A stretch of DNA of 40,000 nt from Candidatus Altimarinota bacterium. GTDB taxonomy: Bacteria > Patescibacteriota > Gracilibacteria > BD1-5 > UBA6164. How positions within the stretch are numbered: the first letter of the stretch is position 1; each line of letters begins with the position of its first letter. Shown here piece by piece: positions 2,460 to 35,382 of the stretch. Location of the stretch: NCBI GenBank assembly GCA_943356435.1, contig CALREY010000006.1, forward strand, positions 23,084 to 63,083. Direction: 5' to 3'. The translations under genes and the position numbers were made by a program. The notes below the pieces were generated by a model that worked only from the letters and a program-made list of their open reading frames with translations, made no database searches and was not told where the DNA came from.

Positions 2460-2461
2460 TT

Positions 2462-3712: not shown

Positions 3713-4266
3713 TGTTGTTGTTTATAATAATCAGATAATTCCTTAGCTCACCAATTAAGTAATCTATATTCTGAAATACCTAGTTTTTTTGCATATTCAT
3801 ATATTAGTTCTTCATTTCACTCTATTTCTAAAAATTCATCTGTTTCCATTCAATCCAAATCTGAATATTTATCAAAATCAAATTGTATAGATTCGTTATT
3901 ATTATTTATCAAATAACTTACTCTTTGTTTAATACTCTGTCTAATTTTATTAAATCAAATAGATTCAAAAAATTTACAAACATCATCCATAGATTTTGTT
4001 TCAAATCAAGCTTCCTGCATTACTTTTCAATTTCCATTTCAAAATATCTGTTTTTTGTTTTCTACTATCACTATATCTCAATCTGACCTCACTCTTATTT
4101 CTATGTATTTTTCTTGTCCATCTATAATTGTATTTTGTCCATAAAATATTGCTGTTAAAACTCAATCAAATATTTTTTTTGCTCATAATTCAAATAGATT
4201 TTGTTCTATTTCTTTATGTCAAACTCATAGTACTTTGAATTCTGTTTCTATATTACTTGCTCACAT
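3700..4266 (-). CDS. CYTH-domain protein (CyaB-like class IV adenylyl cyclase / triphosphate tunnel metalloenzyme)
   Basis: 189 codons. N-terminal ExExK-type motif (NIETEFKV) and C-terminal FDFD..LDGMETDEFLEIEG. The 3' end overlaps the murF start by 13 nt. Confidence 0.55.
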
Positions 4267-4276
4267 ATTTATAAAA

Positions 4277-5014
4277 TTAATTAATTAATTCATCATAATT
4301 CACCCAAACTAGCGCATCCAAATGTAATTCTGGTATATTCAATTTTTTTGATAAATCAAAATAAAATTTTTTTATTAGTTGGTCTTGTCCCCCTCCTTTA
4401 TAGGGAGGGGTTAGGGGTGGGGTGTCTTTATATTTTTGGAACAAATTATCCAATCTAGAATCTATAGGTATAGAAATATTCTCTGGAAAATATATCAATT
4501 TGTTAAATACATTTCTAGCACCATAACTAAACATCTTTATAGCAAAAACTACAGTTTTTGCATCTTTTTTTTGTTTCATAGTTAGAGCTAATTTATCTCT
4601 TAATTCTTCCATATTATTATAATAATACTCAGTCTTAGTCACAAATTCTTCTAGAAATGGTCTCAATTTCTCCAATCTATTTATCTTTGTATCTATAAAT
4701 CTTTTATTATTCTTTGATTGTTTTATAAAATCTCATAAGGATTTAGTAATGTACTCTACTAATCCCCCCTCCTTAATAAGGAGGGGGTTAGGGGGTGGTC
4801 CGAAGTAAGCACCAAACTCTTCCCAATAATCTTCTCATTTACCTGATAACTGATAACAGATTATAGAATTAGCCAAAATAAGTCATAAATATTTATCCTT
4901 TTCGGCTAAATTATCTCACATTTTTTTCAAAGCTTTATATTGTCTATCAGATTCTTCTATTTTAATAGAATCTTCTATAGAATATTTTTTTAATTTTTCA
5001 TATAATTCTTGCAT
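4277..5014 (-). CDS. AGOG-type N-glycosylase/DNA lyase (archaeal-type 8-oxoguanine glycosylase family)
   Basis: 246 codons; extends track ORF 4277..4675 upstream through TGA codons. Motifs CYQLSGKGEDYWEEFG, NKRFIDTKINRLEK, DAKTVVFAIKMF, IPIDSR, ELHLDALVW. Carries two GC-rich element insertions. Confidence 0.6.
4387..4425 (-). repeat. GC-rich hairpin + G-tract mini-element, copy A (inside AGOG CDS, encodes PPLTPPYKGGG)
   Basis: Plus strand reads GTCCCCCTCCTTTATAGGGAGGGGTTAGGGGTGGGGTGT. Four G-runs at 4403-4422. Confidence 0.75.
4764..4799 (-). repeat. GC-rich hairpin + G-tract mini-element, copy B (inside AGOG CDS, other frame, encodes PPPNPLLIKEGG)
   Basis: Perfect 10-bp stem CCCCCTCCTT/AAGGAGGGGG (4765-4774 / 4778-4787), followed by TTAGGGGGTGG. 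Confidence 0.8.
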
Positions 5015-5300: not shown

Positions 5301-7232
5301 CTATTCTTCTATTTCATTCCCTATTTTTTTATACACTTCATAATAATATTCTACAAATTTTCTCAAATCAGGATTTAATGGTAAATAATAGCCATGTTTT
5401 TCTATTGTATAATCACTTAAAAATACTCATGCATCTATCTTTTCTAGATAGATATTTATTAATTTTTTATAATGTGATAAATATAATTCTTTTAATTTAT
5501 TAAATGTGTCAGCATTATAATACATCTCTACTTTGTATATTCACATTACTTCAGTTTCATCTGCTAGTGGACTTTCATTTATCTGAAATTTCAAAATTCA
5601 TGATTCAAACAATATATCTAGATGAATCAATGCTTCAGTATAATATGGTACTAACTCTGTGATTGTTCTATATTTTAATAAATTAACTGACCTATATAAA
5701 TGTGAACTAATAATATCAATATTTAATTGATCTAGTCCGCCTCCTTGATAAGGATGGGTTAGGGGTGGTAATAATAAATACATAAGTAATCATCATGTAG
5801 TAGCTTTGAATTCTTCTATTCTTTTGTATACTCCAGTTTTTTTATTCATAATAGACTGAGTATCTGAATCCAGCCACAAACTATGTCAAAATTCATGACC
5901 AATAGTTAAAATATCATAAATCTTATAAAATATTTCATCATTTCAAAATATAGTATTTCTATAATTTTTCAATAAATTTTGTTCAAAAATTATTGAATCG
6001 ATTTTCATAACAGGACTTTTTTTCTTATTTTCTAGAACCATTTCTGGAAATCAAAATATTTTTTTACCATACATTTCGCTTATTACTTCATCATTAGGTA
6101 CTACTTGAGCTGAACATAATCAAGTTAATTCTGATGAATAGTATAATACAGGAGAAGATAAATACAATTGTACTCTTTTAATATTATCTAGTGAAAATTT
6201 ATATGATGAAGGATAATTTTCTCTACCTATTTCATCATAAAACTTCTCATACATTTCTAGAATTCCATTTTCAACATCTGATTCAAAAACAGTATTTAGT
6301 ATTCTCAAATCCCATTCTGGTGCTACTGCTTTTCTATATTTATCTTCATAAAATTCTAGTGGATGTACTATTTGAAATGGAGTTTTAATACTCATCCATG
6401 CTTCATCTACCTTTGACCATTTATCTACCAATTTATTTGTAACAGTTTCTAAAAATGCTTCTTTTATTGCATTTAAATAATTTATATAATAATCTTTTGA
6501 ATCATATATTTCATCTGTTAGATTAGATAAATTTGAAATAAATGAATCTAGTTCTGATACTATATCATTTATTTCATTCGTAAATACATCATAGTAAGAT
6601 TTTGAAATATATTCTCAATTTTCTAGTACTAATACACTATATGACCTATCAGATATTTCAGCATTATGTCATAAATCAAATAAATTATTTTCATTCAAAT
6701 AATTCATTATTGCTATACTATCATTATCAAATTTTTTTTCTAAATCTCTATTTATTCAATTAACAATATGATTTTTCCATGGAATAAATAATTCATTCAT
6801 AGCCAATCATACATTTGCAACTCACTTGAATATTTCTAAATAAAAATCTGTTAATAGAGCTTTTTCTTGAATAACTGAAATAATTACAGCTTGTACTTCA
6901 CTATGAAAATCACATACAAATTTATATGCTAAATCTAATATTCTGATTTTTTCTTTTTCTAATTCATCTCATATATATGGAGGACTAATTGGCGGATTTG
7001 TATCCATATACAAAATCAATGGAACTTCTTTTAACTGAGCAATTCTAGCAAATGCAGCATATCTAGTCTCCTCATTTTTATCTAATCAAATATAGTCCAA
7101 AAAATCATCTAACATAACTCTATGACCGCCTTCTTCTTTTACTCATTTTAATAAATCATTTATGTTGGATTGTAGACTTTTATACAATTCTAATACATCT
7201 TTAATATTTTGTTCTAGTTCCTGTCTATTCAT
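5301..7232 (-). CDS. HExxH zinc metallopeptidase (family uncertain, possibly M3/PepF-like)
   Basis: 644 codons, joining track ORFs 5598..5783 and 6120..6431 in one frame. Motif TIGHEFGHSLW, followed about 25 aa later by IEEFKATT. Contains GC-rich element copy C. Confidence 0.55.
5736..5769 (-). repeat. GC-rich mini-element, copy C (degenerate; inside metallopeptidase CDS, encodes PPLTHPYQGGG)
   Basis: TCCGCCTCCTTGATAAGGATGGGTTAGGGGTGGT, with mismatches in the stem. Same frame as copy A. Confidence 0.7.
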
Positions 7233-7302
7233 TTATATATTATTAAAAGTTATTTTATAAATTTATAATAATCAAAATAATGCATATGACAAAAAATAAT
7301 AA

Positions 7303-7330
7303 TTGACAATTGTTATTTAAATGATAAAAT
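7303..7330 (+). promoter_or_regulatory. sigma70-like promoter (TTGACA-N16-TAAAAT)
   Basis: TTGACA at 7303-7308 and TAAAAT at 7325-7330, upstream of the zinc-ribbon gene pair. Confidence 0.45.
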
Positions 7331-7360
7331 TAAAATGATTTCCAAAAATAAGGAAAGAAG

Positions 7361-7531
7361 ATGAAACAAAAACAAAATGAAACAAAAGTATATATTTGTC
7401 CAAATTGTGGGAAAAGATTTACCGAAGATGCTTTAATAGATGCTAATCTTCCACCTCACCAAATTGAAGACAATATAGTTCCAAAAAACTGTCCAAATTC
7501 TGGACAATTACCAATCGTAAAATGGGAGTAA
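7361..7531 (+). CDS. small zinc-ribbon-like protein (56 aa), UGA-free
   Basis: ATG preceded by AAGGAAAGAAG. Has CPNCGK and a second CPNSG half-site. No TGA; both Gly are GGN. Confidence 0.5.
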   Translation: MKQKQNETKVYICPNCGKRFTEDALIDANLPPHQIEDNIVPKNCPNSGQLPIVKWE

Positions 7532-7570
7532 TATCCTCTGAAACAAATACAAAACTTATAGGAGTACAAA

Positions 7571-7720
7571 ATGCCTGATAAAAAATTAACTTACCAATGC
7601 CCTGTTTGTGGCAAAGAATATAAAAAAGATGAGATAAACAATGGAATCATACCATTACATATTTTTAAAAATGAAAAATGTTCCGGCACAGGAGGGCAAG
7701 CTACAATTAGCAGAAAATAA
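7571..7720 (+). CDS. small zinc-ribbon-like protein (49 aa), paralogue of 7361..7531, UGA-free
   Basis: AGGAG at 7560-7564, 6 nt, then ATG. Has CPVCGK and KCSGTGG. All five Gly are GGN. Followed by the hairpin terminator. Confidence 0.5.
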   Translation: MPDKKLTYQCPVCGKEYKKDEINNGIIPLHIFKNEKCSGTGGQATISRK

Positions 7721-7732
7721 AAAAGGAAAAAT

Positions 7733-7772
7733 AAAAAATCCTAGAGTTATCTATAACTCTAGGATTTTTATT
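7733..7772 (+). terminator. rho-independent terminator
   Basis: 13-bp perfect stem ATCCTAGAGTTAT/ATAACTCTAGGAT followed by a T-run. Confidence 0.6.
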
Positions 7773-7885
7773 ATACTCGTTTTATATACATTTTTTATAA
7801 AAAGATTTGCAAATGAAAAAAAATATGTATAATAAAAATGAAATCTAATAAATTTCAAATATTTTACCCTATTATAACAATAATT

Positions 7886-8332
7886 ATGGATTTAAACAAA
7901 GCGCAAATTATAGGTAGAACTACTCAAGAGTTAGAATTAAAACAAACTCCAAATGGTCAAAGTGTTACTAGTTTCTCTATTGCTACAAATAGAAACTGGA
8001 CTGACTGAAGTGGAGTGAAACAAGAACAAGTAGAATTTCACAATGTAGTATTATGGTGAAAATTAGCTGAAATAGCACATCAATATATAAAAAAATGAAG
8101 TAGATTATTCATAGAATGAAGAATTCAAACTAGAAGTTGGGAAGCACAAGATGGGACTAAGAGATACAAAACTGAAATAGTATGAGAAAATATGATTATG
8201 CTAGACTCAAAAAGTGATAATTCTGATTTCACTCCTACTACTCCATATGAATCGACTAATTCTACTCCTGCAGTAAAAAGACAAACTCCAAAGGAAGAAG
8301 AAGAAATTTCAATTGACGATATTCCGTTTTAA
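7886..8332 (+). CDS. ssb: single-stranded DNA-binding protein
   Basis: 148 codons. Motifs HNVVLWGKLAE, FIEGRIQTRSWE and the C-terminal tail DDIPF. The conserved Gly in WGK, KKGS and EGR are all TGA. Confidence 0.9.
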
Positions 8333-8333
8333 T

Positions 8334-8363
8334 AAAAAAAGCTTAAATTTAAGCTTTTTTTTT
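8334..8363. terminator. bidirectional hairpin terminator between convergent genes
   Basis: A-run, stem AAGCTTAAA/TTTAAGCTT, T-run. Confidence 0.55.
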
Positions 8364-8369
8364 ATTTTA

Positions 8370-9731
8370 TTAAAGTGATATATATATTATTCACATAATT
8401 CATAATATCATTGCTATTACAAATGATCACATTACATATCTACCAAATAATTTATCACCGAATTTTAATGCTATTGTTCATTTAACCATATTATTTGACA
8501 TAACTGCTAATAGTATAGTTGATACAGCTATTTCTGAAACAACTTTTGATTCTTTAGCCAATACAGTCATTGTCTGAGTAATTGCATCTACATCAGCAAA
8601 TCAAGAGATTATTCAAAATGCATAATAAAATACTGATTCACCCCATATATCTTTATATACTACACCTATTCAAGCTAGAAATTTTAAAAATAATACAAAA
8701 ATTCAAAATTTGATAGCTGGTTTTAGACTAAATGGACTTTCTACTCTTCATTCTAAAGATATATTTTTTGCTAATGGAGCTTTTTTTGATCTCAAGAAGA
8801 AATACAAAGTAACAGAAGCTAATCATAAAAACATCATGAATGCAGGAATAAATATAGTTCCAAGTAATGATACATTAATTAATAATACAATTAATATTAC
8901 TCTAAGTAACATTATAGAATTTGCTAATAATGCTCAAACTGTATATAGATAATAATTTTTTGGATCTTTTTTACTTTGTTCACTCATTGCAGCTGTAACA
9001 GCAGTAGATGATACTAGACCTCAAACAGCACTAGAAATAATTACAGAACCATTTTTTCATAGAAATTTTGATAATAAATATCAAATATAACCAATTGCTG
9101 ATATGGCAACAACGAAGAACCAAACTCCATATGGATTAAAAAATTCCATTTGCCAAATGCTATTTTGTAAATCCAATGCACCATTTACTCAAAATGAATT
9201 AAATAATGTTGCAAAAGAGAATTTTTTGTCTGGCAATACAGGTAATACTACAAAAGATACAACAGCAAATTTCATAGTATGTACTAATTCTTGTCTACTT
9301 ATACGAGATATGAAGTTTTCAGAAACATTTTTTGCTGCAAGTATTATAGAAATGATAATTGTAAATATAACTGGGAATTTCAAATCTAAATATACACAAG
9401 AAACTCAGATGAAAAATACAATTATTCATGCTATTTCTGTAGTTATTCAAATATCTTTATTCTTAAAAGATACATAAACATGTGATACCAATATAAAAGC
9501 AGCTACTATAAATAAAGTAGATAATACAAATAAACCATTTCAAAATGTCTTATCAAACCAAGCAGACATAGTTCAAAGAATTGCAATAATTGCAAAAGTT
9601 CTCACTCAACCATAAGAATCATCTTCGGCTGTTGATAAAAGTCACTTTTTTTCTGGTACATCTCTTTCTAATCATATGAAAGCACCTAATAAACCAGAAA
9701 CTAAAACATATAACAATAAATCATTTATCAT
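8370..9731 (-). CDS. MgtC/SapB-family plus DUF4010-type integral membrane protein
   Basis: 454 codons; in frame with track ORF 9189..9383. N-terminal GLLGAFIGLERD (MgtC-like), then GGLVSSTAVT and FADVDAITQT (DUF4010-like). Confidence 0.65.
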
Positions 9732-9785
9732 AATAAAAGATATTAAATATAATATATATTTTATTTTAACATATTTATAATTATA

Positions 9786-10628
9786 TTACAAATTACTAGC
9801 TATATTTTCTAATTCATATATTTTTCAATCCTTATCTGATAAATATAATTTATCATTTTGCATATAAATTTTTTGAACATCTATATCAGGTTTATATAAT
9901 ATTTTCTTATCCTTTGTATTTGAATTATATAACACTATCAAGTCTGAATCTGCATCAAATCATAGATTATTTAATACTCTTGATTCATCTTTTTTCACTA
10001 ATCATATATAAGAATCATTGTAGTAAACAAAATCATTGAAATAAGTAAAATATTCCAATTTTTTTTCTACATTAGAATAAGTAAAGCTTCATTTATCAGT
10101 AACAAATATCAATAAATCAGGAGTTAATTTTTTGATATATTTTATATCAATATTCAAATCAATTCATGAAATGACTGATGATAAAACATTGTAATAAAAT
10201 TTATTTTTACCTACTTCTATATATAAATCATTTAATGATCAATGAACTTCAGTTACTTTTAAAAATTCAGGATAAACTAAGTCAAAATTTCAGATTTTTA
10301 CTCTATCAACATACAAATCCAATTTATTATCCACTTCTTTGAAATATACTTTTGAAGCATTTTTTAGATTAAATGTTTTGTAATTTGATTTATCTTCCTT
10401 TAATTGTTCTATTTTTTGTTCATTTGTTAATTCTACAGTTTTTATATCTAATTTTGTTAGTTTTAATTCATTTTTTGCTTTTTCTACTTCTATTTTTCTT
10501 TGTTCTTGTTTTTTTAATTGATCTTCGATTCTCTTTTGCTTTTCTGGTATATATTTGTAGTTATAATAAAAATATCATCATATAATAACTCATATGATTA
10601 TAAAAAATGAAATAATTTTATTAAGCAT
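9786..10628 (-). CDS. hypothetical N-terminally membrane-anchored protein with coiled-coil segment
   Basis: 281 codons in code 25. One N-terminal hydrophobic helix followed by a K/E-rich stretch. No recognisable family. Confidence 0.45.
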
Positions 10629-10734
10629 AAATCTGTATTAAAAAATATTGTTAGTATATTATTCTTTTATGCTAGTTTGCAAAGTTTTTTCTTGATAAAA
10701 AAATAAATAATTGTAGAATTGAAATCATAAAAAA

Positions 10735-10790
10735 CCTCTCTCTTGAATTCTCTTCCAGCTAAAGCTGGAAAAGAGGCTACAATATAGAGA
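10735..10790 (+). repeat. CT-rich/AG-rich hairpin followed by GGCTACAATAT (related to the module at 28382-28423)
   Basis: Stem CTCTTCCAGCT/AGCTGGAAAAGAG, flanked by GAATTC and GGCTACAATATAGAG. Stands out as G+C-rich in the folD upstream region. Confidence 0.5.
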
Positions 10791-10811
10791 ATATTATTTA
10801 ACTATAAAATT

Positions 10812-11642
10812 ATGTTGATAGACTGAACAAGTGTAGCTTTGCATATATATGATAAAATCAAAGCAAAAGTAGCTAATATGGATACTAAACCTACATTGTG
10901 AGCTATTTTGGTGTGAAATAGTCCTGCTAGTCTGAGATATATTAAACAAAAGAGAAAATGGGCTGATTATACATGAGTTAATTTCAAATTATTAGAATTA
11001 GATGCAGATATTTCTGAAAAAAAATTATTAAAAAAAATAGAAAAATTCAATGAAGATGATGATATATCTGGATACATAGTACAATTACCTCTACCTAAAC
11101 ATATAGATGAAAATAATATAATAAATGCTATAAAACCAGAAAAAGATGTAGACTGATTTCATCCTATAAATCAATGAAAAGTATTGATATGAGATAAATC
11201 ATGACTAGAACCATGTACTCCTGCATGAATAATAAAAATACTGAAATCTCTAGATATAGAATTTCACTGACAAATAGTATGTGTAATAGGTAGAAGTAAC
11301 ATAGTAGGTAAACCAGTAAGTGCATTACTAATAAACGAGTGAGCAACTGTGATAACATGTAATAGCTCTACTCCAAATATATCAGACTTCACTAAAAAAG
11401 CAGATATAGTAATAATTGCTGTTTGAAAACCAGAATTGTTAAAAGAAAATATGCTAAAAAAATGAAGTATTGTTATAGATGTATGATTTACAGTAGTAGA
11501 TGAAAAAATATATTGAGATGCAGATACAGCAAATATCGACAAAGCATGACATAGAGTTACACCAGTACCTGGATGAGTATGACCATTAACAGTTGCTATA
11601 CTGATAAAAAACACATTAAAAGCTGCTAAAAATAAAAATTAA
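10812..11642 (+). CDS. folD: bifunctional methylenetetrahydrofolate dehydrogenase/cyclohydrolase
   Basis: 276 codons. Motifs DVDGFHP, GRSNIVGKP, PVPGGVGPLT. By hand count 19 of 23 Gly codons are TGA. Confidence 0.9.
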
Positions 11643-11715
11643 AAAAAGTCGAAAAAAGTTTTGACTTAAATAGATTTTTTAATAATATATGTCTCGCAAG
11701 TTACAGAAGTGTTAT

Positions 11716-11792
11716 GCGGGCATAGCTCAATTGGCTAGAGCATCTGCCTTCCAAGCAGAGGGTTGTGGGTTCGAGTCCCATTGCCCGCTCCA
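11716..11792 (+). tRNA. tRNA-Gly (anticodon UCC), CCA encoded
   Basis: Cloverleaf folded by hand: acceptor GCGGGCA/TGCCCGC, anticodon stem TCTGC/GCAGA, loop CTTCCAA, T-loop TTCGAGT. Confidence 0.85.
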
Positions 11793-11860
11793 TTAAAAAC
11801 TTGTAATAAAAGTAGAAAGTACTAAAGTCATTTACTACTCTCTACTTTTATTTAATATTC

Positions 11861-11937
11861 GGGTGTATAGCTCAGTTGGTTAGAGCGCACGACTGATAAT
11901 CGTGAGGTCGATGGTTCAACTCCATCTATACCCACCA
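11861..11937 (+). tRNA. tRNA-Ile (anticodon GAU), CCA encoded
   Basis: Acceptor GGGTGTA/TATACCC, anticodon stem CACGA/TCGTG, loop CTGATAA, T-arm GATGG/CCATC. Confidence 0.85.
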
Positions 11938-12045
11938 TAAAATATAGATAAAACTCTAAGGAGTTGAAAGGAGGTTTTTTATGAAGTAAAAATTTTATTG
12001 CGACGAATAGGAGCAATAAAAACGGATGGCCGACCCGAAGGGCGC

Positions 12046-13104: not shown

Positions 13105-14799
13105 ATGAACAAACTATTATTGTGAATAATCGGTGCATTTTCAATTATTATAATACTTTATATTTCTTACAATATATTTTTTAATAGTAATAAAGGTACT
13201 ACTTTTGAAGGTTATGATTCTAAGATGATAGAACAATGTAAAAGTATGCCAAATATGAATTGATGTAAAGAATATACTAAATCAATAATATGATGAGCTA
13301 ATGATTCAAAATATTATAATCCAATAGAATTAAACCAAGATGACGTTAAAAATTCAAACAAAGTAAGTGTTATTGAATTAAAAGATTGAGATGTTTATGA
13401 AATGGTTGTAACTAAAGTAATAAAGGAAATTTGAAATTCTAAAGTAGTAATGTTTGCTTATAATGGAAGTGTTCCATGACCTATTATTAAAGTAAAAAAA
13501 GGGAGTGAAATAACAATAAAATTTACAAACAAAGTAAAAGAAATAGACACTACTCTTCATTCTCATTGAATAAGAATTGAAAATAAATATGATGGTGTTC
13601 CAAAAAGTATGAATTGAAATCAAAAAGCAATTAAATATTGAGATACTTTTGTTTATAAAGTAAAATTTAAAGATGAATGAATTTATTGGTATCATCCACA
13701 TGTAAGAGAAGATTTACAAATGGAACTTTGATTGTATTGAAATTATTTAGTTAATCCTGAAACAGATGAATATTGGTCTAAAGTAAATACAGAAGAAACT
13801 ATTATTTTAGATGATATATTAATAGAAAATGATAAAATAGCACCTATAGCAAATAGTTTTTCTAATTATCTATTTTCATGAAGATATTGAAATACAATGT
13901 TAATAAATTGAGATGCTAATTATTCATTAAATGTTAAAAAATGAGAAACAGTAAGATTGTATTTTACAAATTCATCAAATACTAGAGTATATAATGTAAA
14001 TATCCCTTGAGTAAAAATGAAACTAGTATGATCAGATATGAGTAAATATGAAAACGAAACATATGTAAATAATTTTATAATTTCTCCAGCAGAAAGATAC
14101 GTAGTAGAATTATATTTTGAAAAACCTTGAAATTACAAAATACAAAATGTAACTCCATCAAAAACTTATGTACTATGAAATATAAATGTTTCAAATGCAA
14201 TTGACTTAAAAAATTATAAAAAAGAATTTGATACATTGAGAAAAAATAAAGATATAATAAGTGATATAGATAATTATAGAGAGTATTTTGATAAACCAGT
14301 TGATAAGAATTTAATTTTAGCAATATCACAAAAATGAATAAAATGATGAATGTATTCTATGTGAGATATGTTAGAATGAAATAAAGATTTTGTTATGGAT
14401 TGAATAGAATATGAAGATGCTAATATAAAATTAAATAAAATGTCTAATTCTAAAAATCTAGTTTGGAAGATAATTGATAAAGATACTCTAAATGAAAATA
14501 TGGATATAAATTGGAATTTTAAAGTATGAGATAAAGTTAAAGTAAAAATATTTAATGATAGTAATACTTTATACCACATACAACATCCTATACATTTTCA
14601 TTGACAAAGATTTTTAGTAATAAATAGAAATTGAGTTAGACAAACCAATTTAGTTTGGAAAGACACAGTTTTAGTAAAAGAATGAGAATCAGTTGATATA
14701 TTAATAGATGTAACTAATCCTGGTGATTGGATGGCTCATTGTCATATTGCAGAACATTTAACATGATGAATGATGATGAATTTTAATGTAAAAAAATAA
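13105..14799 (+). CDS. multicopper oxidase (three-cupredoxin laccase/CueO-like), paralogue 1
   Basis: 564 codons. N-terminal hydrophobic anchor. Copper-site motifs TLHSHG, WYHPH, HPIHFHG, WMAHCHIAEH. Very many in-frame TGA at Gly positions. Confidence 0.8.
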
Positions 14800-15544: not shown

Positions 15545-17020
15545 ATGTACGATAATAAATACGATGTAATAATTATTTGATCTGGTCTTGGTTGACTAAG
15601 TGCTTGAGCCATTTTATCTCAAAAATGAAAAGATGTATTAGTATTTGAAAAACATTATTTATTTTGATGATATGCTACAAATTTTAAAAGAAAAGATTAT
15701 GAATTTGATGTTGCATTGCACCAAATATGATGATTAGAAAAAACAGGATTTAAAAATTTATTAAAAAATATTTGAGTATTAAGTAAATTAAAACTTATAA
15801 AACACAAATATCTATATGAAGCTATTTACCCTGACTTTGAATTAAAAGTAGAAAATTGAAATGTATGATTATTAAAAAAAGATTTAATTAAATTATTTCC
15901 AAATGAAAGTTTTGGTATAAAATTATGGTTTTTTATGATGTCTTATATTTGATTTCAAATAAGAATATGGGATTTCTGACAAAGAAATAAATTATTCTAC
16001 CCTTTTATAATGTTTTTTGCTCCATTACTTATTCCTATACTTGCTTTTGGTAGTAATTTGAAAATATCTACATTACTTAATAAATGTACGAATGACAAAA
16101 AATTACAAAAAATATTCATGGAACTGATTGGTTATTATTGAGATGATTTAAATCTATCTGCAATTTATTATATGGTACCAAGTTATTGATACTATTTTGA
16201 TGGATGATACTATGTATATGGATGATGACAAGCCGTTTCTGATTCATTTATAGATGTAATAAAATCGAAATGATGAGAATTGATAAATAACTGTGAAGTA
16301 CTAGAAATTATATATGAGTGAGATATTGCTATATGAGTAAAAACTAGGAAATGAGAGTATTATGCAGATACAATAATATGTAATGCATCACCATTTATAT
16401 TATACGAAAAATTATTAAATAATAATCCTAAAAGTGAAAAAGAAATACAAAAATTATCTACTTATGAAATATGACCATCAATAACATCTGTATACATATG
16501 ATTGAATACAACTATAGAAAATCTAAATCCTAGATTTAAAGATAGCTATATAGTAACAATTAATGAAAATTATGAAATATCATTTGAAAAAAATAATAAT
16601 ATATGATTCACTATAACTGATAATAATCACAACAAAAATATTCCAGTATGAAAAACAGTATTAACAGCAGCGTTATTTGAAAAATATTCTCAGTGGGATA
16701 ATCTAGATATAGAAGAATACAAACAAAAAAAGAAAGAAAAAACAGAGTTATTAATAACTAGACTAGAAAAATATTTCCCTAAAATCAGAGAATTCATAGA
16801 AGTGATAGAATATGGAACACCTAAAACAATGGAAAAATATACTGGAAACAAAAACTGAGCTGTATATTGATTTAGTAAAAAAATAGGAAATGAAAAACAA
16901 TCAGATTATTGATACAAAACATATTTAGAAAATGTATATTTATCATCTGCTCGGAGTTTTGGTTGATGATTTGAATGAGTAATCAGAGCTTGAAACGAAG
17001 TTTGTAAAAAAATAAAATAA
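15545..17020 (+). CDS. FAD/NAD(P)-dependent oxidoreductase, phytoene desaturase (CrtI)-like family
   Basis: 491 codons. N-terminal dinucleotide fold DVIIIGSGLGGLSAGAILSQKGKDVLVFEKHYLFGGY, with most Gly encoded by TGA. Confidence 0.65.
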
Positions 17021-17058
17021 TAATAAAATAACATAATTAATTCAACAACACAATTATT

Positions 17059-17487
17059 ATGATCAAGAAACAAATATTTATCAATGAAATTTTCAAGTTA
17101 GTTGCAATACTAGAAAATAGCTGAGATTATATATTTTCTCAAGTTTGACTAACAGTAAAAACTTATTGAATATTATATTTAATAAGTACTTGAACAAATA
17201 CTTCTAGAGATTTACTAACTTGAACATATTGAAGCAAACCAAATATGGCAAAGAAATTAAAATTTCTAGAAGAAAACTGATTCATAAATAGAAATATAGA
17301 TTTAGAAGATAAAAGAATATTTAGATTTACAATGACAAAAAAAGCAATAAATACTCTAGAGAAAATATCACCAATTTATGAAAAAAATATTTCAAGACTA
17401 TTTGATAATATAGATGATGAAACATTAAAAAATAGTTTATGAGTAGTAGACCAAATGATAAATAATTTAAAAATATGTAACAAATAA
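17059..17487 (+). CDS. MarR-family transcriptional regulator
   Basis: 142 codons. Winged-helix pattern of MarR type (MAKKLKFLEENGFINR..DLEDKRIFRFTMTKKA). Confidence 0.6.
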
Positions 17488-22316: not shown

Positions 22317-23981
22317 TTATTCTTTAACACTAAAATGCATCATCATACCTGAAAATAAATGCTCAGATATATGACAGTGAGCCATCCATTCTCAAGGATT
22401 ACTCATATCTGCTAATATATCAATATTTTCTCATGTTTTTAATAATACTGTATCCTTCCAAACTAAATTTTCTTGTTTCTTTCAATCTCTTGATACAACT
22501 AAAAATCTTTGTCAATGTAGATGAAATGGATGTTGCATAGGATGAGCCGCATCCTCTTTTTTATTTTCTATATGGATTTTTACTATATCTCATTTTTTGA
22601 ATTGCCAGTTTATATCCATATTTTCTTTTTTTGTATCTGTATCTATTATTTTCCACTCAAATTCTTGAGAAGTAGATGTCTGATTCATCATAGGCATACT
22701 ATCTTCCCATTCAATATTATCTTGAGATGTATTTCACATCATCATTCATCAATGAGACATATTTCACATTCAATCTTCTCAAATTCATCATTTTTTTCAC
22801 AATCTTCATAATTCTAAACTCAAATTTTTATCAGCTTTTTTATCAAAATAAGGTTTATATTTTTCTATATCTTGTGTAGTATCAGCATTTACTTTCAATG
22901 TCTCAAAATCAGTTTTATAAGAAGTTTGGATTTGTTCCTTTGAAACTATTACTTTTCAAATTATATAATTATCATTTGGAGTACTATTTTGTATTTCAAA
23001 ACTACCAGATTCAGGAGCAAATAAATCTACTATATATCTTTCTCATGGAGCTATTGTTATATTATCTACATAACTTTCTCTCTCATATTTTCAATTATCA
23101 GATCATACTAATTTCATTTTTATTCAAGGGATTTTGAAATTAAATACTCTAGTATTTGCTACATCAGTTAAATATACTCTAACTACTTCTCATTTTTTCA
23201 AATTCAATTTATAGTCAGAATCTCAATTTACAAACATAGTATTTCAAAATCTTCACATTAATACATAATTTGTAAAATCTTTATAAAAAGGTTTTAATTT
23301 ATTCCCATTTAAATCTATATCATCTAGAATTATATTATTTTCACTATTAACTTTTGAATAATAGTTTTCATCACTCGGTTCTACTATATAATTACCATAT
23401 AATCATAATTCTTGTTGAATATCTTCTCTCAAATGTGGATGATACCAATAAATTCATACATCAGGGAAACTAAGTTCATAAGTGAAACTATCTCATTCTT
23501 TTATTGGATCTTGTTTTCACATCATATCTTTCACAACTCAATCAAACATATCACTAAGTCTCAATCAATGAGAATGTAGCGTAGTTTCTAAATCTGCTAC
23601 TTTATTTACAATTGTTACTTTTGCTTTTGTTCAAACTTTAGCTTTTATAATTGGACCAGGAATACTTGAATTATAAGCAAGCATTTCAACTTGTTTTCAT
23701 CAAATATTTTTATTTATTTTTGTGATTTCTATTGTATAATTATCCCCTTCTTTCAAATTCACTATTTCTTGTTTTTTTTCATCACTAGCCAATTGTCATT
23801 TTCAATAAACTAATTCTTTTGTTGAAATATTTTTATCAACTCCATGATTCATCATTCCAGAATTCATATTATTATTATTCATTCACATATGCATATAATT
23901 TATACTATATGGATAAATTATATATCCTATTAGTAAAGTTAATAGTACTACTAAAAGTAATATTATTGTATTTTTTTTCAT
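22317..23981 (-). CDS. multicopper oxidase, paralogue 2, with Met/His/Gly-rich insert
   Basis: 555 codons. Motifs TLHSHG, WYHPH, HPFHLHG, WMAHCHISEH. Insert GMGNMSHGGMMMGN..SMPMM. Confidence 0.8.
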
Positions 23982-24006
23982 ATTTTAATTTCTTATTATT
24001 ATTTAA

Positions 24007-27000
24007 CTACTTAACTATCTTAAAATCTTTTTTTGATACAAAATGCATCATATCATAACTAGTAAATGTCTTCTTTAACTGCTTTATTACTATTACATTA
24101 TTTCAAAAGAAATCTGTTAATTTATCTCATATATTTTTTATAAGTCACAATTTAAACATCATATTTGTATCAGTAAATCATACATACATATTTATAAATC
24201 AATTATTAGTAAATGAATTTGTATCAATCTGATTTACAAAATACTTTGGTATATTAGTATTGTCCATTAAATAAAATGTTCTAATTGATAAATTATCAGG
24301 TGTTGGGAAAAATACTAAACTTGTACTATCTCATTCAACTATATCATAATTACTAGAATTAAAAATATGTACTTCATCCAAAAATGTATCAGTCTTAGCT
24401 AAAATACCTACAACTTTCACTTTTTCTAATCAAAAGAAATTTATTAATTCATCTCCTACTCATTTTATTAGTCATAATTCTATCATCATCTTTGCTTCCA
24501 TATATCATATTACTACTTCATTGCTTTTTATAGAATTTATTCAAGTTTTTAATTTAAAACTTTGTGGAATTTTATCAGTGAATAAAAATATTTTTGGAGC
24601 ACTAGTTTCTTCTATATTTATCTTATTTTTTGAATGAACTATAAAATCTGTAATATCTGTTAATACTTTTTGATTATTAGTAGTATAAATTTTTTCGAAA
24701 TTATATGATTGATTTATAGAAGCAAATGAAATAAATATAGATAAAAATAATAAAACTAAAAAAATCAAACTAACAGTTGAAAAATATTTATGTTTTACAC
24801 TTATTCTAAGTAATAATGAATTAACAACAACTGAAACACTACTCATTGCCATAGCTAATCATGCAAACTCAGGCTTCAAATATAATCAATAACTTATAAA
24901 TACTCCTGCAGCAATAGGTATTCATAAACTGTTATAAAATAGTGAGAAAAATAGATTTTGTTTTATTTTAGACACAGTTTGTTTACTCAGATTTATAGCT
25001 TTTACTACATCATTTAAATCATTTTTCATCAAAACTATATCAGAGCTCTCAAGTGCCACATCATTTCCAGATCACATAGCAATAGCTAAATCACTATTCA
25101 TCATAGCAATAGAATCATTTATTCCATCTCATACCATAGCTACTTTATGATTCATTTTTTGTATTTGTTTTATAATATTTCCCTTTTCTTGTGGAAGTAC
25201 TTCACTAAATACATTTTCTAATTTTATTCACACTTTGTTTGCTATGAATTCTGCTGAATATTTATTGTCTCATGAAATCATAAATACCTCTATTCAGATA
25301 TTTTTCAATATAGAAATAGCTTCAATAGAAGTATCTTTTACTTGGTCACTTACTGAAATTAATGCTAATATTTCATTATTATTTGCTAAAAATAATACTG
25401 TTTTTCATTCTCATACTAGTTTTTCATAATTATCTAAAACTGCTTTATTTAATGATAAATTATAATTATTAAGTAGTGATTTATTTCATATTATATATTC
25501 TATATCTCATATTTTTCAAACTACTCATTTTCAATTAATTATTTTAAACTCGCTTGTTTTGATTAACTCAATATTTTTAGATTTTGAATATTCTACAATA
25601 GATTTAGAAATAGGATGATTTGAATTATTTTCAAGTGAATAAATTATCTCTAATATATCATTTTCTGAGTAAGAATTATTTATAATAATCAAGTCTTGAA
25701 ATGAAGGATTTCAATAAGTAATTGTACCTGTTTTATCCAATGCTACTGCTGTAATATAATTTGCTTTTTCTAGTGCAGAACCTCATTTTATCAGTATTCA
25801 TGATTTAGCTCATATACCAGTTCATACTATAACAGCTGTAGGAGTTGCCAATCCTAGTGCACAAGGACAAGCTATAACTATCACACTACAAGCTAAAAGT
25901 ATTGAATTCTCGAAACTTGAACTAAGTAAAAAATACCAAACTAAAAATGTTAATATAGACAATATGATAACAATCGGTACAAAAACTCTAGATATTCTAT
26001 CTGCAAAAGATTCTATATCAGATTTCGATAAACTAGCTTCTTCTAGTAGATTTATTATTTGATAAAGCATTGTTCACATTCATACTTGAGTAGATATTAT
26101 TTCAAAACTAGTATGTTGGTTCAATGTACCTGTTAAAACTTTATCTCATGTATTTTTATCTATTGGTAGACTTTCTCCTGTAAGCATAGATTCATCTACT
26201 GATGCATATCAAGATATTATTTTTCAGTCTACAGGTATTTTATCTCATGGTTTTACTAGTATAGTATCTCATACTTTTATTGATTCTATATCTTGCTCTA
26301 TAAACTTATCTCCTACTTTTACAAATGCTGTTTTTGGAGCTAAAGACATCAATTTACTAATAGCTTCACTAGTTTTTGATTTAGCTCTTGTTTCTAGATA
26401 TTTTCAGAAACATACAAAAGTAATTAATAGTGCAGATACTTCGAAATAAATTCACTCTATTTTCATTCCATTTAAACCTAAAATACTTCAAGTATCTAAG
26501 TAAAAAATTATAAAAGAATATAAGCTATAAACAAATGCTACAGTTGTTCATATTGCAATTAAACTATACATATTAGCAGTTTTTTGTCTAAGAGCGGCAT
26601 AAAATCATCTATAAAATTCCAATCATAAACTAAATTGTAAAATAGTTGAAATTAAAAATGATACAATTGCCATATATGGCATAATAACTTCATTGTAATC
26701 TAATCATTTTACGAAATCATATACCATAAATATGATTAATGGAATAGATAATATAAATCAAAAAATACTTTTATACAACCAATCTTTTGATTCATCTATT
26801 ACTTTTGTATCGCTAGTTGAAGCTTTGTATCATGATTGTTCAACTATTTTAATAATTTCACTTTCTGTTATCTTTGTTTCATCATATTCAACCAAGGCTT
26901 TATTATTTCAAAAATTCACTTTTGATGTGATAATATTTGGATTATCAGATAGATTTGATTCTATTATTTTAGAACAACTTGAACAGTGCATTCAAGAAAT

Positions 27001-27018
27001 ATTTAATTTTGTTTTCAT
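24007..27018 (-). CDS. copA: copper-translocating P1B-type ATPase with in-frame ~265-aa C-terminal extension
   Basis: 1004 codons. Motifs: HMA GMHCSSC, TGES, VIACPCALGLATP, DKTGT, GDGIND, AMSSVSVVVNSLLL. In frame with track ORFs 24541..24852 and 25822..26070. No TAA/TAG until 24007-24009. Confidence 0.85.
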
Positions 27019-27023
27019 ATATT

Positions 27024-28340
27024 TTATTTAACAATTATAACTCATTGTCACATTCACATAGTTCCACATACTACATCATATTCTCACTGCTTAGCATTAT
27101 TTATATCATAAGTAATAGCTTGTCATTTCAATATATATGAAACTTTTGAGCTAAGTTTTGGGATTGTTTGAGTAGACATACATCACTTACCATTTTCACT
27201 TGGTAGTACTGTGATTTTATAATTTTTTCATTTTTCTAATACCAATTCTTTTGGATCCATTTGATATCAATCAAATCATACAGTTATTTCTTCAACATCA
27301 TTGTTAATAGTTTCAGTATTAGTAGACTCTTTATTTTGAGTAACTTGATTTGTATTATTACTTGTACTTGAAAAATTTAATAAGTTATAAGAATTTGAAA
27401 CAGTAATAAGTCAGAAAAATATTAGTACTGCTGCAATAATTTTATTAAAAATAGGAAATTTCTTTCATTCAAAATAACTAGACCCTAATCACAATGAAAA
27501 CAATACAGGAAAAGTACCAATTACAAAAAATAGCATAATTAATCCACCTCAAATAAAACTTCAGCTACTTACAGCTAATAGTTGCATAGCCTGTGTAAAT
27601 CAACATGGTAGAAAAAATGTCAATACTCAAGCTATTGGAGCATATTCTGGTTTTCATAATTTTTCTATTTTAGAAGCAAAACTTTTTGGCATATGAATTC
27701 AAAATCTAGATATAGATGGTAGTATTCATAATATATTTAATCATATGTATAACAAAATTATTCACACGAAAAATGTCAGTATAGATCAAATAGAAAAACT
27801 TAAACTAAATAATTTTCAAGTAAGTCAAAGAAGTCAACCTAGTAAGAAAAATCATATAATTCTTCACAATTGAAATCATAACTGTACTTTAATATGTCAG
27901 TTAGTGGTATTTGTACTATCTATATATTTTGAAAATCATATAATTAATCATCCTGTAACTGCTAAACAAGTAGAAATAGATGCTATCAATCATACTAACA
28001 ATGCTCATGAATAACTCAAAGTAGAAGTATCTGGTATATATTTAATTGAATCAAATAATCAAGTAAACATAAATAATATAATGACTATTAATAATGCTAT
28101 GATATTTGTAATCATATTATTGTTTCAAGTACTATTTATTTGATTAACTTTATATCAATTTTTTTCTATTATTTTTATCACTTTTTCATAATCAGATTCC
28201 CTTTCATAATCTATTTCCATTATTCACTTTTTGTAACTTATCATAAGTAATTGTACTCAAGTAAGTTTTTTTAATTCTTTTTCTAGAATCATTTCACAAC
28301 TTATACAATGCATTCACTTAATGTTTATTATTTTTTTCAT
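27024..28340 (-). CDS. HMA domain + TauE/SafE- or DsbD-like permease + C-terminal cupredoxin-like domain protein
   Basis: 439 codons. N-terminal GMHCISCE. About six helices, including FFLPCGFTQAM. C-terminal roughly 90 aa with C..VVCGTMGMGQG. Its stop lies 5 nt before the copA start. Confidence 0.6.
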
Positions 28341-28365
28341 TTTAATTTGATTATGTTTTAAGTTT

Positions 28366-28495
28366 TTCATAACTCTATCCTGAATCCTTTCTCTTACTTA
28401 AGAGAAAGGGGCTACAAAATGAGCATCCCTCTCTTAAATAAGAGAGGAATTTATGCACGAAGGGAGGTATCCTGTGGACAAGGGTGAGTTATGAA
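28366..28495. other. GC-rich multi-hairpin module bounded by 10-bp inverted repeats (structured RNA or MITE-like insert)
   Basis: TTCATAACTC at 28366-28375 is the rc of GAGTTATGAA at 28486-28495. Internal hairpins: CCTTTCTCTT/AAGAGAAAGG (28386-28409) and CCTCTCTT/AAGAGAGG (28428-28447). Confidence 0.5.
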
Positions 28496-30706: not shown

Positions 30707-30738
30707 AAAAAAATGGGCATTTTTCAAGCCCATTTTTT
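30707..30738. terminator. hairpin terminator downstream of the PurM-like gene
   Basis: A-run, stem ATGGGC/GCCCAT, T-run. Confidence 0.55.
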
Positions 30739-30749
30739 AATATAGAATT

Positions 30750-31889
30750 TTAGTTAAATTCTACAAGTCCTCCTTTATATTTTGAAATAATAGTAATACT
30801 AGGAAAATCTCTCTTTGTTATTTCCCCACACACTTTAGCATCGATATTGTGTTTTTCAGCAATAGATAACAAAATATCAACATCATTTTTATCAACAATT
30901 GCCAAAGCACCTTGACCTGCATTCCATGTTTTATAAAGATCCCTGTCAGTCATTTCTCTCCAATCAGCACACTGCCTCATAATATCAGGCAATGGATACA
31001 AATCGTATAAATAAGCTGACAATCCTTTGCGATAAAGTAAATCACCTAGTTTTGATTCGAAACTACCACCAGTAACATGTACAATTCCTTTTATATCGAT
31101 CCTTTCGTCCTCTAACCATCCATTTGCATCCACAAATACTCTATCGTACAAGATAGATGGAACAGCAGCAGCCATAATTGATTCAAATGCTATTTGTTTA
31201 TTGAACCAGTTGTCACCAAACTTCATTTTGAATGCTTTTCTGACTGATGATATACCATTGCTTCTAAAACCATTTTCCTTGAAAGCAATTACAATATTGC
31301 CTTCTTCAATGTTTCCACCAGTTATCATTTTGTCAGGATGAAATAGTCCATGAACTGATGCACCCCAATTGTACATGAGAGTCGCATTTGGATTTTCTGA
31401 TGAAACTAGAGATGATAACTCTGCTGTTTCACCATTTAATACAATGATTCCAGATTTTTCAGCTGCTTTGAGTAATCCAGCATATAGATTAAGTACTGCA
31501 TTGTAAGTGGGAGATTCAATAGACTCTCCTAAACTACTTACATCCAGAACAGAAGTCATATAGACAGGAATACCTCCCCAACGAACTAAATCAAAAGAAG
31601 TCATTGCCAGCAAATCGTAAGCAGACAATATATGAGTACCAACAGCATCAGTCAAAACTACTTTGGTACCGATTCCATCAGGAGCACAGCTCCAAAAACA
31701 AAAACTAGAATCAAATTCAGGCTTTAACTGAATAGCTCTAGGACCACGAAAATTACCATTGCTAGTATCTACTACATTCGCAATTGGTGAAAAAGTGTAT
31801 GATGCTTGGCAAACTTTTGCAGCAAATTTTGAAGCAGAGTCACCTAAATCTACATTAACACCATCGCTTGAATATATCTCACCCGCCAT
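30750..31889 (-). CDS. PurM/AIR-synthase superfamily protein (divergent phosphoribosylformylglycinamidine cyclo-ligase-like), UGA-free
   Basis: 379-aa ORF, intact even in the standard code. Motifs DGVNVDLGD, APDGIGTKV, NGETAEL, NGFRSNGIS. GGAGG (rc 31896-31900), 6 nt, then ATG. Confidence 0.8.
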   Translation of the reverse strand: MAGEIYSSDGVNVDLGDSASKFAAKVCQASYTFSPIANVVDTSNGNFRGPRAIQLKPEFDSSFCFWSCAPDGIGTKVVLTDAVGTHILSAYDLLAMTSFDLVRWGGIPVYMTSVLDVSSLGESIESPTYNAVLNLYAGLLKAAEKSGIIVLNGETAELSSLVSSENPNATLMYNWGASVHGLFHPDKMITGGNIEEGNIVIAFKENGFRSNGISSVRKAFKMKFGDNWFNKQIAFESIMAAAVPSILYDRVFVDANGWLEDERIDIKGIVHVTGGSFESKLGDLLYRKGLSAYLYDLYPLPDIMRQCADWREMTDRDLYKTWNAGQGALAIVDKNDVDILLSIAEKHNIDAKVCGEITKRDFPSITIISKYKGGLVEFN

Positions 31890-31932
31890 AACTCACCTCC
31901 GAAACTAAAAAAAGACTAAAAAAGTCTGCATA

Positions 31933-31960
31933 GTTATAATTATTTTTATATAATTGTCAA
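31933..31960 (-). promoter_or_regulatory. sigma70-like promoter (TTGACA-N16-TATAAC)
   Basis: rc TTGACA at 31955-31960 and rc TATAAC at 31933-31938. Confidence 0.45.
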
Positions 31961-32011
31961 AATGTGTTAATAAAACAAAAAATACTGATAATAATTATCA
32001 GTATTTTTTAT

Positions 32012-32410
32012 CTAATTAGTAACTATTGGTTTTAATTCTTCTATTATTTGTTTATCTCAACTAAAATGCTTTTTATCAGATTTTCTAATCATAAAAGGTA
32101 CTCCTCTTTCCTCTTCTTTTATTCATAAATCATCTAATTCTTTTTGAAAAATCTTATCATTTGCATCATTTTCCCATACTTCTCTTTTTTCTATTTTGTA
32201 TTTATTCATTATATCATTTTCCTTGAAATACTCTGCTACTTTTATACAATGTGGACAAGTAATTCAATAAAAATATAGATAATCTGCATCTGGATTTATT
32301 ACATCCAAACTTTCAGATCAAGTATTTGTAGTATTTGTGTTAGTTTGTGTATTTCACGAACAAGAAAAAAGTAAAAAAACTGATAAAATTGCTAATAAAA
32401 TTTTTTTCAT
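32012..32410 (-). CDS. thioredoxin-fold lipoprotein (CPHC active site)
   Basis: 133 codons. Signal peptide with lipobox LLFSC. Motif YFYGITCPHCIKV. Confidence 0.65.
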
Positions 32411-34962: not shown

Positions 34963-35382
34963 ATGTTAGTACGATTATTTGTATTTTTGATTGCTATTAT
35001 TGGAAGTGGTAATACTTTCGCATCTGTAAGTCATAGTGATGATGATTCATCTGGTCCATCATTTGGCGTTCATAGCTACAACGGTCACGATCAGGACCAA
35101 GAAGATCAAAATGGTTCTGGTCATGAATCGGATGATGAACATGGCAATCAATTTCACGTTGTATTCGACGATGAAAACGGCAGAAAAGAACATGAAGCAA
35201 AGTTGAAATTTTATGAACATAGAGATGAGCATGAACACTCACACTATCCTCAAAATGGTTCTCCTGCTCCTGTTCCTCTACCGGCTGCATTCTGGTTTAT
35301 GATGAGTGGTATACCTTTGTTATTCACTCGTCGCAAAGCAAAAATTTGATTTAGCTATTTGATAAATATGCTAGATTGATAA
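34963..35382 (+). CDS. secreted His/Asp/Glu-rich protein with PEP-CTERM/VPLPA-CTERM-like C-terminal sorting signal
   Basis: Track ORF 34963..35349 ends at a TGA. Under code 25 it runs 11 more codons to TAA at 35380-35382. Signal peptide, His-rich middle, then PVPLPAAFWFMMSGIPLLFTRRKAK. AGGAG, 6 nt, ATG. All 11 Gly are GGN. Confidence 0.6.

Follow-up and report, generated by a model that had tools for sequence, protein, structure and literature searches.

UGA-free purM gene and its surroundings

We analysed a stretch of 40,000 nucleotides (nt) from a Candidatus Altimarinota bacterium (contig CALREY010000006.1, positions 23,084 to 63,083; this whole stretch is referred to as the window, and coordinates are counted from its first letter). 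Our focus is a purM gene at 30750..31889 on the minus strand (379 codons, TAA stop), which is predicted to encode a phosphoribosylformylglycinamidine cyclo-ligase (AIR synthetase, where AIR stands for aminoimidazole ribonucleotide) of the type found in the Candidate Phyla Radiation (CPR), and which has zero in-frame TGA. In a table 11 scan this is the sole open reading frame (ORF) of at least 150 aa in the window, in agreement with the preliminary description of this DNA; the range given there (30707-31975) marks a real locus, but it covers the ORF, which is narrower, together with the flanking signals. Reading TGA as a sense codon reveals about 33 more genes in the window. UGA is found at invariant glycines of these native genes (Walker A of ABC-F, GDGxND of CopA, the P-loop of MurF and PGGVGP of FolD), and therefore the organism reads UGA as glycine (code 25).

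All 33 glycine codons of purM are GGN (19 GGT, 12 GGA, 1 GGC and 1 GGG), as had been counted before, and none is TGA; TGA makes up 517 of the 697 glycine codons of the other 33 window genes. By our arithmetic, the probability of finding no TGA among 33 glycine codons is about 3e-21 at the native frequency of 0.76. For folD, the gene used for comparison in the preliminary description, our count is 18 TGA among 22 glycine codons, which corrects the 19 of 23 given there. The higher G+C content of purM is borne out as well (0.359 vs about 0.20-0.28 in its neighbours; native genes are at about 0.24). The excess resides in the first and second codon positions (GC1 0.46 and GC2 0.40 vs native values of 0.33 and 0.27), and therefore it reflects amino-acid content and the choice of GGN over TGA, not a foreign third-position bias: GC3 is 0.22 in purM vs 0.13 in native genes, and 0.10-0.27 in the purM orthologues introduced below.

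The protein has two Pfam domains, PF02769 (AIRS_C, 1e-12) and PF00586 (AIRS, 2.9e-5), both above their gathering scores. TIGR00878 (purM) aligns over model positions 3-331 of 332, but with 124 bits, below the equivalog cut-off of 236.35; the protein therefore represents a divergent subfamily. The closest solved structures by sequence are all PurM (20-26% identity). For the AlphaFold model built on 30 homologues (predicted local distance difference test score, pLDDT, 94.1; predicted template modelling score, pTM, 0.91), PDB ranks 1-31 of the fold search are all AIR synthetases or putative ones (E-values from 1e-26 to 1e-18); HypE, SelD and ThiL rank from 1e-14, and PurL also comes behind the AIR synthetases. 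The ATP-site motif of the superfamily is DX4GAXP. A motif of this type is found as D100-LVRW-G105-G106-I-P108, with D100, R103, G105, G106 and P108 invariant in 30 sequences. Within the PurM/HypE/ThiL/SelD superfamily, in which the preliminary description had proposed to place the protein as a check, the fold search thus puts it with PurM.

A scan of a genome collection with the single protein gave no match, and an alignment-based scan found relatives in 329 GTDB species genomes; with these and 585 database matches the family is large and Patescibacteria-specific. Clustering of the neighbouring genes in 143 loci showed that purM of standard-code CPR genomes is found next to purE (54 loci), purL (51), purN-like (41) and purB (39) genes, and more rarely next to purF (25), purH (12) and guaA (8). 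As the family adjoins purine genes in standard-code CPR genomes, we consider it the CPR version of purM. The window itself holds no other pur gene (gene table of ±10 kb and translations), as had been noted before. The accompanying statement that CPR bacteria generally lack de novo purine synthesis is too broad, since the purM family is present in 329 genomes and clusters with pur genes; a Gracilibacterium genome (PMC6851277) is also cited against such a blanket claim. Taken together, 30750..31889 is probably a functional, long-resident purM (predicted to convert formylglycinamidine ribonucleotide, FGAM, to AIR) of a Patescibacteria-wide type.

Expression signals of purM

For comparison we used 11 purM orthologues with DNA, all from contigs that read UGA as glycine: the window and the loci L001, L003, L007, L089, L090, L170, L172, L174, L176 and L177. 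The GGAGG-N6-ATG start reported earlier is there: a Shine-Dalgarno (SD) motif GGAGG lies at 31896..31900 (minus strand), 6 nt 5' of the ATG, and its duplex energy of -10.8 kcal/mol is the strongest among 34 genes (SD motifs were scored as duplex energy to a generic anti-SD). An SD is present in 2 of the 34 window genes, purM and 34963..35382 (-7.3 kcal/mol), so the claim that native starts lack an SD stands for all but one other gene. Among the orthologues, 9 of 10 have an SD-like motif (-5.8 to -13.1 kcal/mol); the motif of L176 is a weaker variant (-4.5).

A promoter-like sequence, TTGACA (31955-31960) and TATAAC (31933-31938) separated by a 16-nt spacer, is found at 31933..31960 on the minus strand. 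A scan for consensus promoters was uninformative, as promoter-like sites occur at chance level in this A+T-rich DNA, and support for the promoter therefore rests on conservation: a TTGAC(A/T) box and a -10 box at a similar distance are found in the purM orthologues. The element described earlier is thus present and conserved, although the consensus scan alone would not single it out, and TTGACA-N16-TATAAC would act as a sigma-70-like promoter of purM. Directly 3' of the purM stop, at 30708..30738 (minus strand), is an intrinsic-terminator hairpin with a U-run (-13.4 kcal/mol, z -3.1). Its counterpart in L001 reaches -22 kcal/mol (z -7.1), and hairpins are found 3' of purM in the seven orthologues compared. 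A long A/U-flanked hairpin (31974..32012, minus strand; -16.4 kcal/mol, z -6.7) lies 5' of the promoter and is, by its fold and position, the predicted terminator of the upstream gene 32012..32410, insulating the purM unit. Both hairpins fold far better than shuffled sequence, and the earlier statement that terminators lie on both sides holds.

We also looked for a riboswitch or leader RNA in the 5' untranslated region (UTR); no Rfam family was found there at threshold, and a small hairpin in the UTR is no more stable than those of shuffled sequence. The sigma-70-like promoter, the short 5' UTR, the strong SD and the terminator would make purM a self-contained unit of expression.

Synteny and descent of purM

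The window is part of a 77.9-kb ENA contig, and an independent Logan assembly from another run has the same gene order and both junctions of purM. Ten more UGA=Gly contigs, all of them from unrelated samples, show the same purM architecture. In a related UGA=Gly genome (L001) purM lies at the same place, upstream of the same major facilitator superfamily (MFS), DsbD-like, copper-oxidase and CopA genes; the shared genes are 77-82% identical, except CopA (45%) and a short hypothetical protein (57%), and the promoter, SD and terminator of L001 are recognisably those of the window purM. L090 and L172 share the upstream ABC-F gene with the window. Syntenic purM orthologues with 74% identity have diverged synonymous sites, and in a neighbour-joining tree the UGA=Gly orthologues and the closest database proteins form one clade within the Patescibacteria PurM family, a clade that diverges down to 52% identity.

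An assembly chimera between a standard-code fragment and a UGA=Gly contig would account for the abrupt change of codon style at both hairpins, but given the identical gene order and junctions in the ENA contig and the Logan assembly, and the recurrence of the architecture in ten other contigs, we regard it as practically negligible. The preliminary description had offered recent acquisition from a standard-code donor as one of two possibilities. A purM gene newly taken from an SD-using, standard-code donor and not yet adjusted would fit the absence of in-frame TGA, the SD, the higher G+C and the gene's own promoter and terminators; the genomic context varies among lineages, and in L003, the only locus with an adjacent serine recombinase, the purM-purL pair lies next to that gene and a restriction-modification system. 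Against it stand the syntenic orthologues in L001, L090 and L172 with their diverged synonymous sites, the single clade, the shared junctions, GC3 values close to native, and the turnover of native glycine codons during the same interval (see below). No flanking integrase, transposase, tRNA target or other mobility gene is present in the ±10 kb gene table, and none is evident in the window translations. This explanation is largely refuted and we consider it very improbable.

A phage auxiliary metabolic gene was also considered and rejected, as the purM genes found in phage records are canonical and distant (at most 26% identity) and a single viral contig gave a match, at 34%. Phage hallmark families are absent from the ±10 kb gene table and none is evident in the window translations.

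An extra G in the run TGGGGGTGG, at about 2845-2860 of L001, splits the purM orthologue there, whose ORF is otherwise intact. The split protein is found on four contigs, and the two loci compared are from different runs; either the gene became a pseudogene very recently or a sequencing error recurs at this site. One purM orthologue is labelled Tenacibaculum in the database.

Exclusion of UGA from purM

The preliminary description had named syntenic orthologues using UGA for glycine as the observation that would speak against its proposal; such orthologues were sought in related code-25 genomes, and the purM orthologues found there are all UGA-free. In nine purM orthologues 0 of 325 glycine codons are TGA vs 1474 of 2027 in their neighbours. 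Two more orthologues have 0 of 72 in the conserved ORF (0 of about 397 in total), and two further orthologues are rare intact long genes on contigs that were called with code 11. Each orthologue contains 10-20 GGA codons, each of them one mutation from TGA. Depletion of TGA at the nucleotide level is ruled out, since TGA is frequent in the other two frames (70 and 221 occurrences) and occurs 0 times in frame.

Comparison of the window with L001 gives a measure of codon turnover. At conserved glycine sites of native genes we counted 105 TGA/TGA, 29 switched and 15 GGN/GGN pairs; in purM all 30 conserved glycines are GGN/GGN, with the third base changed at 10 of them. If 54% of GGN sites persist, the probability that all 30 purM sites stay GGN is about 9e-9 by our arithmetic. 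Among the window, L090 and L172, ABC-F shows saturated switching between TGA and GGN, and the 26-31 conserved purM glycines are all GGN. Within a complete Gracilibacterium genome (L007), a purN-like gene with 16 TGA and 15 GGN lies between purL (0 of 112 TGA) and purM (0 of 37). As purM remains GGN-only while adjacent native genes swap UGA and GGN to saturation, selection keeps UGA out. These codon comparisons show that the UGA-free state is not the leftover of a recent transfer, and that purifying selection maintains the exclusion.

Two simpler accounts were examined and set aside. A generally biased purM is not seen in standard-code CPR genomes, where codon usage of purM matches that of its neighbours in 90 loci. 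Accuracy at critical glycines is not supported either: TGA occurs at fully conserved glycine sites of the L007 purN-like gene (the difference in conservation, 0.48 vs 0.65, is non-significant at p = 0.21, with four homologues only), and the native Walker A, GDGxND and PGGVGP glycines are also TGA.

UGA-free, SD-led gene class

We surveyed 111 genes with at least 8 glycine codons in 12 UGA=Gly loci, counting an SD at -6 kcal/mol or lower. Seventeen of the 23 UGA-free genes have an SD, as compared to 1 of the 88 UGA-using genes, so that the UGA-free state coincides with the SD (Fisher's exact p = 4e-14). The second possibility in the preliminary description, a code-neutral, SD-driven gene class, is thus supported by the persistently UGA-free purM and extended to 12 loci. 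We think it fairly probable that in code-25 bacteria a few genes, a discrete class, have kept the format of the standard code, the bulk of their genes being UGA-rich and SD-less. In the literature that we searched, no earlier description of UGA-free genes in code-25 bacteria was found, and the link of SD use with the exclusion of a reassigned codon is apparently undescribed, as far as we found.

Besides purM, UGA-free members of the class include purL (in L003, L007, L175, L177 and a contig called with code 11), SAICAR synthase (phosphoribosylaminoimidazole-succinocarboxamide synthase), phosphoribosyltransferases, orotidine 5'-phosphate (OMP) decarboxylase, threonine synthase (thrC), a DUF420-like membrane protein and several proteins of unassigned function. 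purL adjoins purM in L003, L007 and L177. The class is not simply the purine pathway, as the purN-like gene of the L007 pur cluster uses UGA. In L170 a UGA-free, SD-led run (789..4620) comprises purM, a phosphoribosyltransferase gene, the DUF420-like gene and two others (270 and 144 aa); these sit among UGA-rich genes, and their G+C is native-like (0.20-0.31). In L175 a UGA-free, SD-led threonine synthase (6483..7922) and a phosphoribosyltransferase (16731..17420) are likewise found among UGA-rich genes.

The second class gene of the window, 34963..35382 (plus strand), is SD-led, has a G+C of 0.37 and no TGA in 128 codons. A TGA at 35347-35349 stands where the standard-code ORF would stop, and read-through adds 11 residues. 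Its product is a His/Asp-rich secreted protein with a VPLPA/PEP-CTERM-like tail, and the gene seems to have been imported recently from a bacterium with the standard code.

Two other members have a TGA at the ancestral stop: in L003 purL (8142..12005) codon 1261 is TGA, and when it is read as glycine a 26-residue tail follows; in L176 purM (3402..4568) it is codon 382, followed by a 6-residue tail. Under code 11 the same genes had been called at 1260 aa, and under code 4 with W as the last residue. The presence of TGA at the old stop in three members (L003 purL, L176 purM and the window gene at 35347) suggests standard-code ancestry. The purL of the clade is of the large, 1260-aa type, with its best matches outside the clade in Desulfobacterota (55% identity); the thrC clade is nearest to Proteobacteria outside the clade, and the closest relatives of purM outside its clade are Patescibacteria. 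From these comparisons the class seems to consist of old imports or relics of a standard-code past, and a foreign ancestry in the deep past is likely.

Possible reasons for the exclusion of UGA

In our leading view, the reason for selection against UGA could be a translational cost specific to the mRNAs of the class; it may take the form of a dependence on one tRNA, or of an intolerance of slow UGA decoding on strongly initiated, SD-led mRNAs (see the ribosome-traffic account below). Decoding of UGA would depend on one dedicated and heavily used tRNA-Gly(UCA), and keeping strongly initiated biosynthetic mRNAs free of UGA would make their translation independent of this tRNA. For example, when host supply breaks down and little of the major glycine tRNA is charged, UGA-free mRNAs could still be translated. 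The class would then follow the logic of the bldA/TTA codon regulon in inverted form. Our tentative proposal, which we consider possible but short of likely, is that the class is a tRNA-Gly(UCA)-independent regulon that can be translated under starvation, tRNA damage or phage attack, and that UGA has been excluded from it since early in the radiation. In an extreme variant, to which we give only a slight chance, the class genes are cassettes with standard-code signals meant for expression in a standard-code host cell.

An unlikely explanation, in our estimate, is ordinary translational selection, by which purM would be among the most highly expressed native genes and avoid slow UGA, AGA and AUA codons; the preliminary description had likewise raised the possibility that UGA-free genes are simply the highly expressed native set. 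The strong SD and consensus -35 box fit this idea, as do the codon choices of purM/purL (AGR 45% vs 93%, ATA 18% vs 54%, and more T-ending fourfold codons). In BD1-5 proteomics (PMC4032931), 97 of 820 peptides span a UGA-encoded glycine, fewer than expected by our rough estimate. However, the genes for superoxide dismutase (SOD; 7 TGA, 0 GGN), initiation factor IF-2 (59, 4), RecA (26, 7) and rubrerythrin (9, 4) are UGA-rich and SD-less, and DnaJ and BipA are likewise UGA-rich and without an SD in the same genomes; high expression is therefore a weak explanation. The shift to C-ending NNY codons is moreover inconsistent between lineages, the avoidance is absolute for UGA and merely partial for AGA and ATA, the purN-like gene of the same cluster is UGA-rich, and the ordinary codon usage of purM in standard-code CPR genomes speaks against it too. 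One locus considered as a ribosomal-protein operon (L089) was rejected as such, as its translations read as an Fe-S assembly (SUF) cluster, by eye and with no family search.

A little less probable still is an account based on ribosome traffic, in which fast SD initiation combined with slow UGA decoding causes collisions and loss of mRNA, so that imported SD-led genes would be trapped in the UGA-free state regardless of how abundant their proteins are. The tight link between SD and UGA-freeness, the tolerance of UGA in abundant SD-less genes and the confinement of the avoidance to the reading frame all agree with it, but the L003 gene 488..2122 combines a strong SD with 29 TGA, and several UGA-free genes have only a weak SD (L176 purM, -4.5 kcal/mol; L007 purL, -5.9 kcal/mol). 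We find it improbable that portability is the reason, that is, that cassettes move between UGA=Gly bacteria and a standard-code pool (phages, other CPR bacteria or hosts) and only code-neutral versions persist. TGA-free phages of UGA=Gly bacteria are known (PMC10746230), and such movement would match the cassette-like architecture of purM, the different genomic contexts between lineages and the TGA kept at the old stop in some members; against it, all 11 orthologues with DNA are in UGA-rich contexts, viral contigs and phage records gave only the distant matches mentioned above, and synteny and divergence fit descent within the lineage.

Several points weigh against the proposed regulon and the long-term exclusion of UGA behind it. 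The sole SD-bearing UGA-using gene of the survey, L003 488..2122, has AAGGAGG at -11.8 kcal/mol and 27 TGA in the survey tally (29 over the full ORF); it is an AAA_15/AAA_21 ATPase gene adjoining a DpnII-type restriction-modification system. The UGA-using purN-like gene of the L007 pur cluster counts on the same side. Purine synthesis consumes glycine, which is a poor fit with a glycine-starvation rationale, and if purL is missing from the window genome, as it may be, purM would have no pathway to serve. The expression comparison covers about 170 kb of UGA=Gly sequence that holds no ribosomal protein or EF-Tu gene, so a class of extreme expression is possible. The PurM tree is a neighbour-joining tree without support values, and between the window and L090/L172 purM is 54% identical vs 81-85% for ABC-F, which leaves room for exchange of purM among code-25 lineages. 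Finally, the DNA patterns used to find loci back-translated glycine as GGN, a bias against UGA-rich orthologues; it is mitigated as gene calls aware of code 4 or code 25 (L001, L174 and L176) were equally detectable and are also UGA-free.

Other features of the window

A cluster of copper-handling genes (13105..14799 and 22317..28370) encodes two multicopper oxidases, a CopA P-type ATPase and a DsbD_2-like protein with an HMA domain. With 1003 aa, CopA of the window is longer than that of L001 (817 aa) and has a repeated extension at its C-terminus. Immediately after folD, at 11716-12148, comes a cluster of tRNA genes, Gly(UCC)-Ile(GAU)-Pro(UGG), which is the cause of the G+C peak at 11-12.5 kb; tRNA-Gly(UCA) is absent from the 40 kb window. 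A G+C-rich palindromic repeat of about 46 nt with the core CCCCTCC-TTATAA-GGAGGGG is found at 4375-4420, 4751-4796 and 5723-5768, with a degenerate copy at 6950-6995. It sits in frame inside the genes 4277..5014 and 5301..7232, where it adds a PPLTPPYKGGGQDQL-like peptide, and resembles the Rickettsia palindromic elements.

Native starts, e.g. those at 7838 (ssb) and 34050, are SD-less and often have a TATAAT-like box 4-12 nt 5' of the ATG, which suggests very short leaders or leaderless mRNAs. Gracilibacteria and Absconditabacteria are often without ribosomal protein bS21 (PMC9297842), and its loss may be related to the general absence of SD motifs. CGA and CGG are nearly extinct in native genes (0-1 per 10,000 codons). 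They occur in several purM orthologues (L007, L170 and others), with up to 3 CGA and 1 CGG in L007, which bears on the reassignment of CGA/CGG to Trp proposed in Absconditabacteria (PMC8629427).

Significance and comparison with known systems

Codon reassignment is usually seen as affecting a whole genome and as hindering gene exchange; in this case two gene classes are found in one genome, and one of them has, under selection, resisted the new codon throughout the history of the clade. If the pattern proves to be genome-wide, genes of standard-code ancestry could be recognised in code-25 bacteria from sequence alone, a synonymous change to the reassigned codon would be non-neutral in some mRNAs, codon reassignment would be tied to the mode of translation initiation (SD or SD-less), and the cost or conditionality of UGA=Gly decoding would become testable. 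There is also a practical consequence: under code 11 only the class genes are intact and long on such contigs, so binning and annotation can be misled (as with the Tenacibaculum label).

The purM gene itself is ordinary though divergent; its peculiarity is that the exclusion of a reassigned codon is conserved, under selection and coupled to SD use. Like canonical PurM (EC 6.3.3.1; E. coli 1CLI and Francisella 3M84), the protein has the two-domain AIRS/AIRS_C fold and keeps the DGxGTK, GETAE-like, HxTGG and NxGxG motifs, but it is about 35 residues longer and belongs to a Patescibacteria-specific subfamily whose AIR synthetase activity is predicted. Bacteroidota are an SD-poor lineage with a few SD-led genes. 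The code-25 bacteria share with such lineages that most genes are SD-less and a small minority has a strong SD, and differ in that SD use is tied to the exclusion of a reassigned codon. In the bldA/TTA regulon of Streptomyces, the proteome is split by one codon that is read by one dedicated tRNA; here too the presence or absence of one codon partitions the proteome, but the arrangement is inverted (most genes contain the codon, and those that exclude it are the minority) and regulation through tRNA-Gly(UCA) is hypothetical.

According to the model attributed to Lawrence and Ochman, horizontally transferred genes reportedly ameliorate towards the host genome. The class has donor-like features (SD motifs, TGA at old stops, Arg and Ile codon choices, and some nearest relatives outside CPR) and its third positions have been adjusted to the host, yet a change from GGA to TGA is seen in no lineage, an absence that is not predicted by neutral amelioration. 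The nearest parallel for genes that work in a UGA=Gly cell without in-frame TGA is the TGA-free, code 11-compatible phages predicted to infect Gracilibacteria/Absconditabacteria (PMC10746230; Liu et al. 2023). Unlike these phages, the class genes are chromosomal, metabolic and inherited within the lineage, with no phage genes near them and no close viral homologues.

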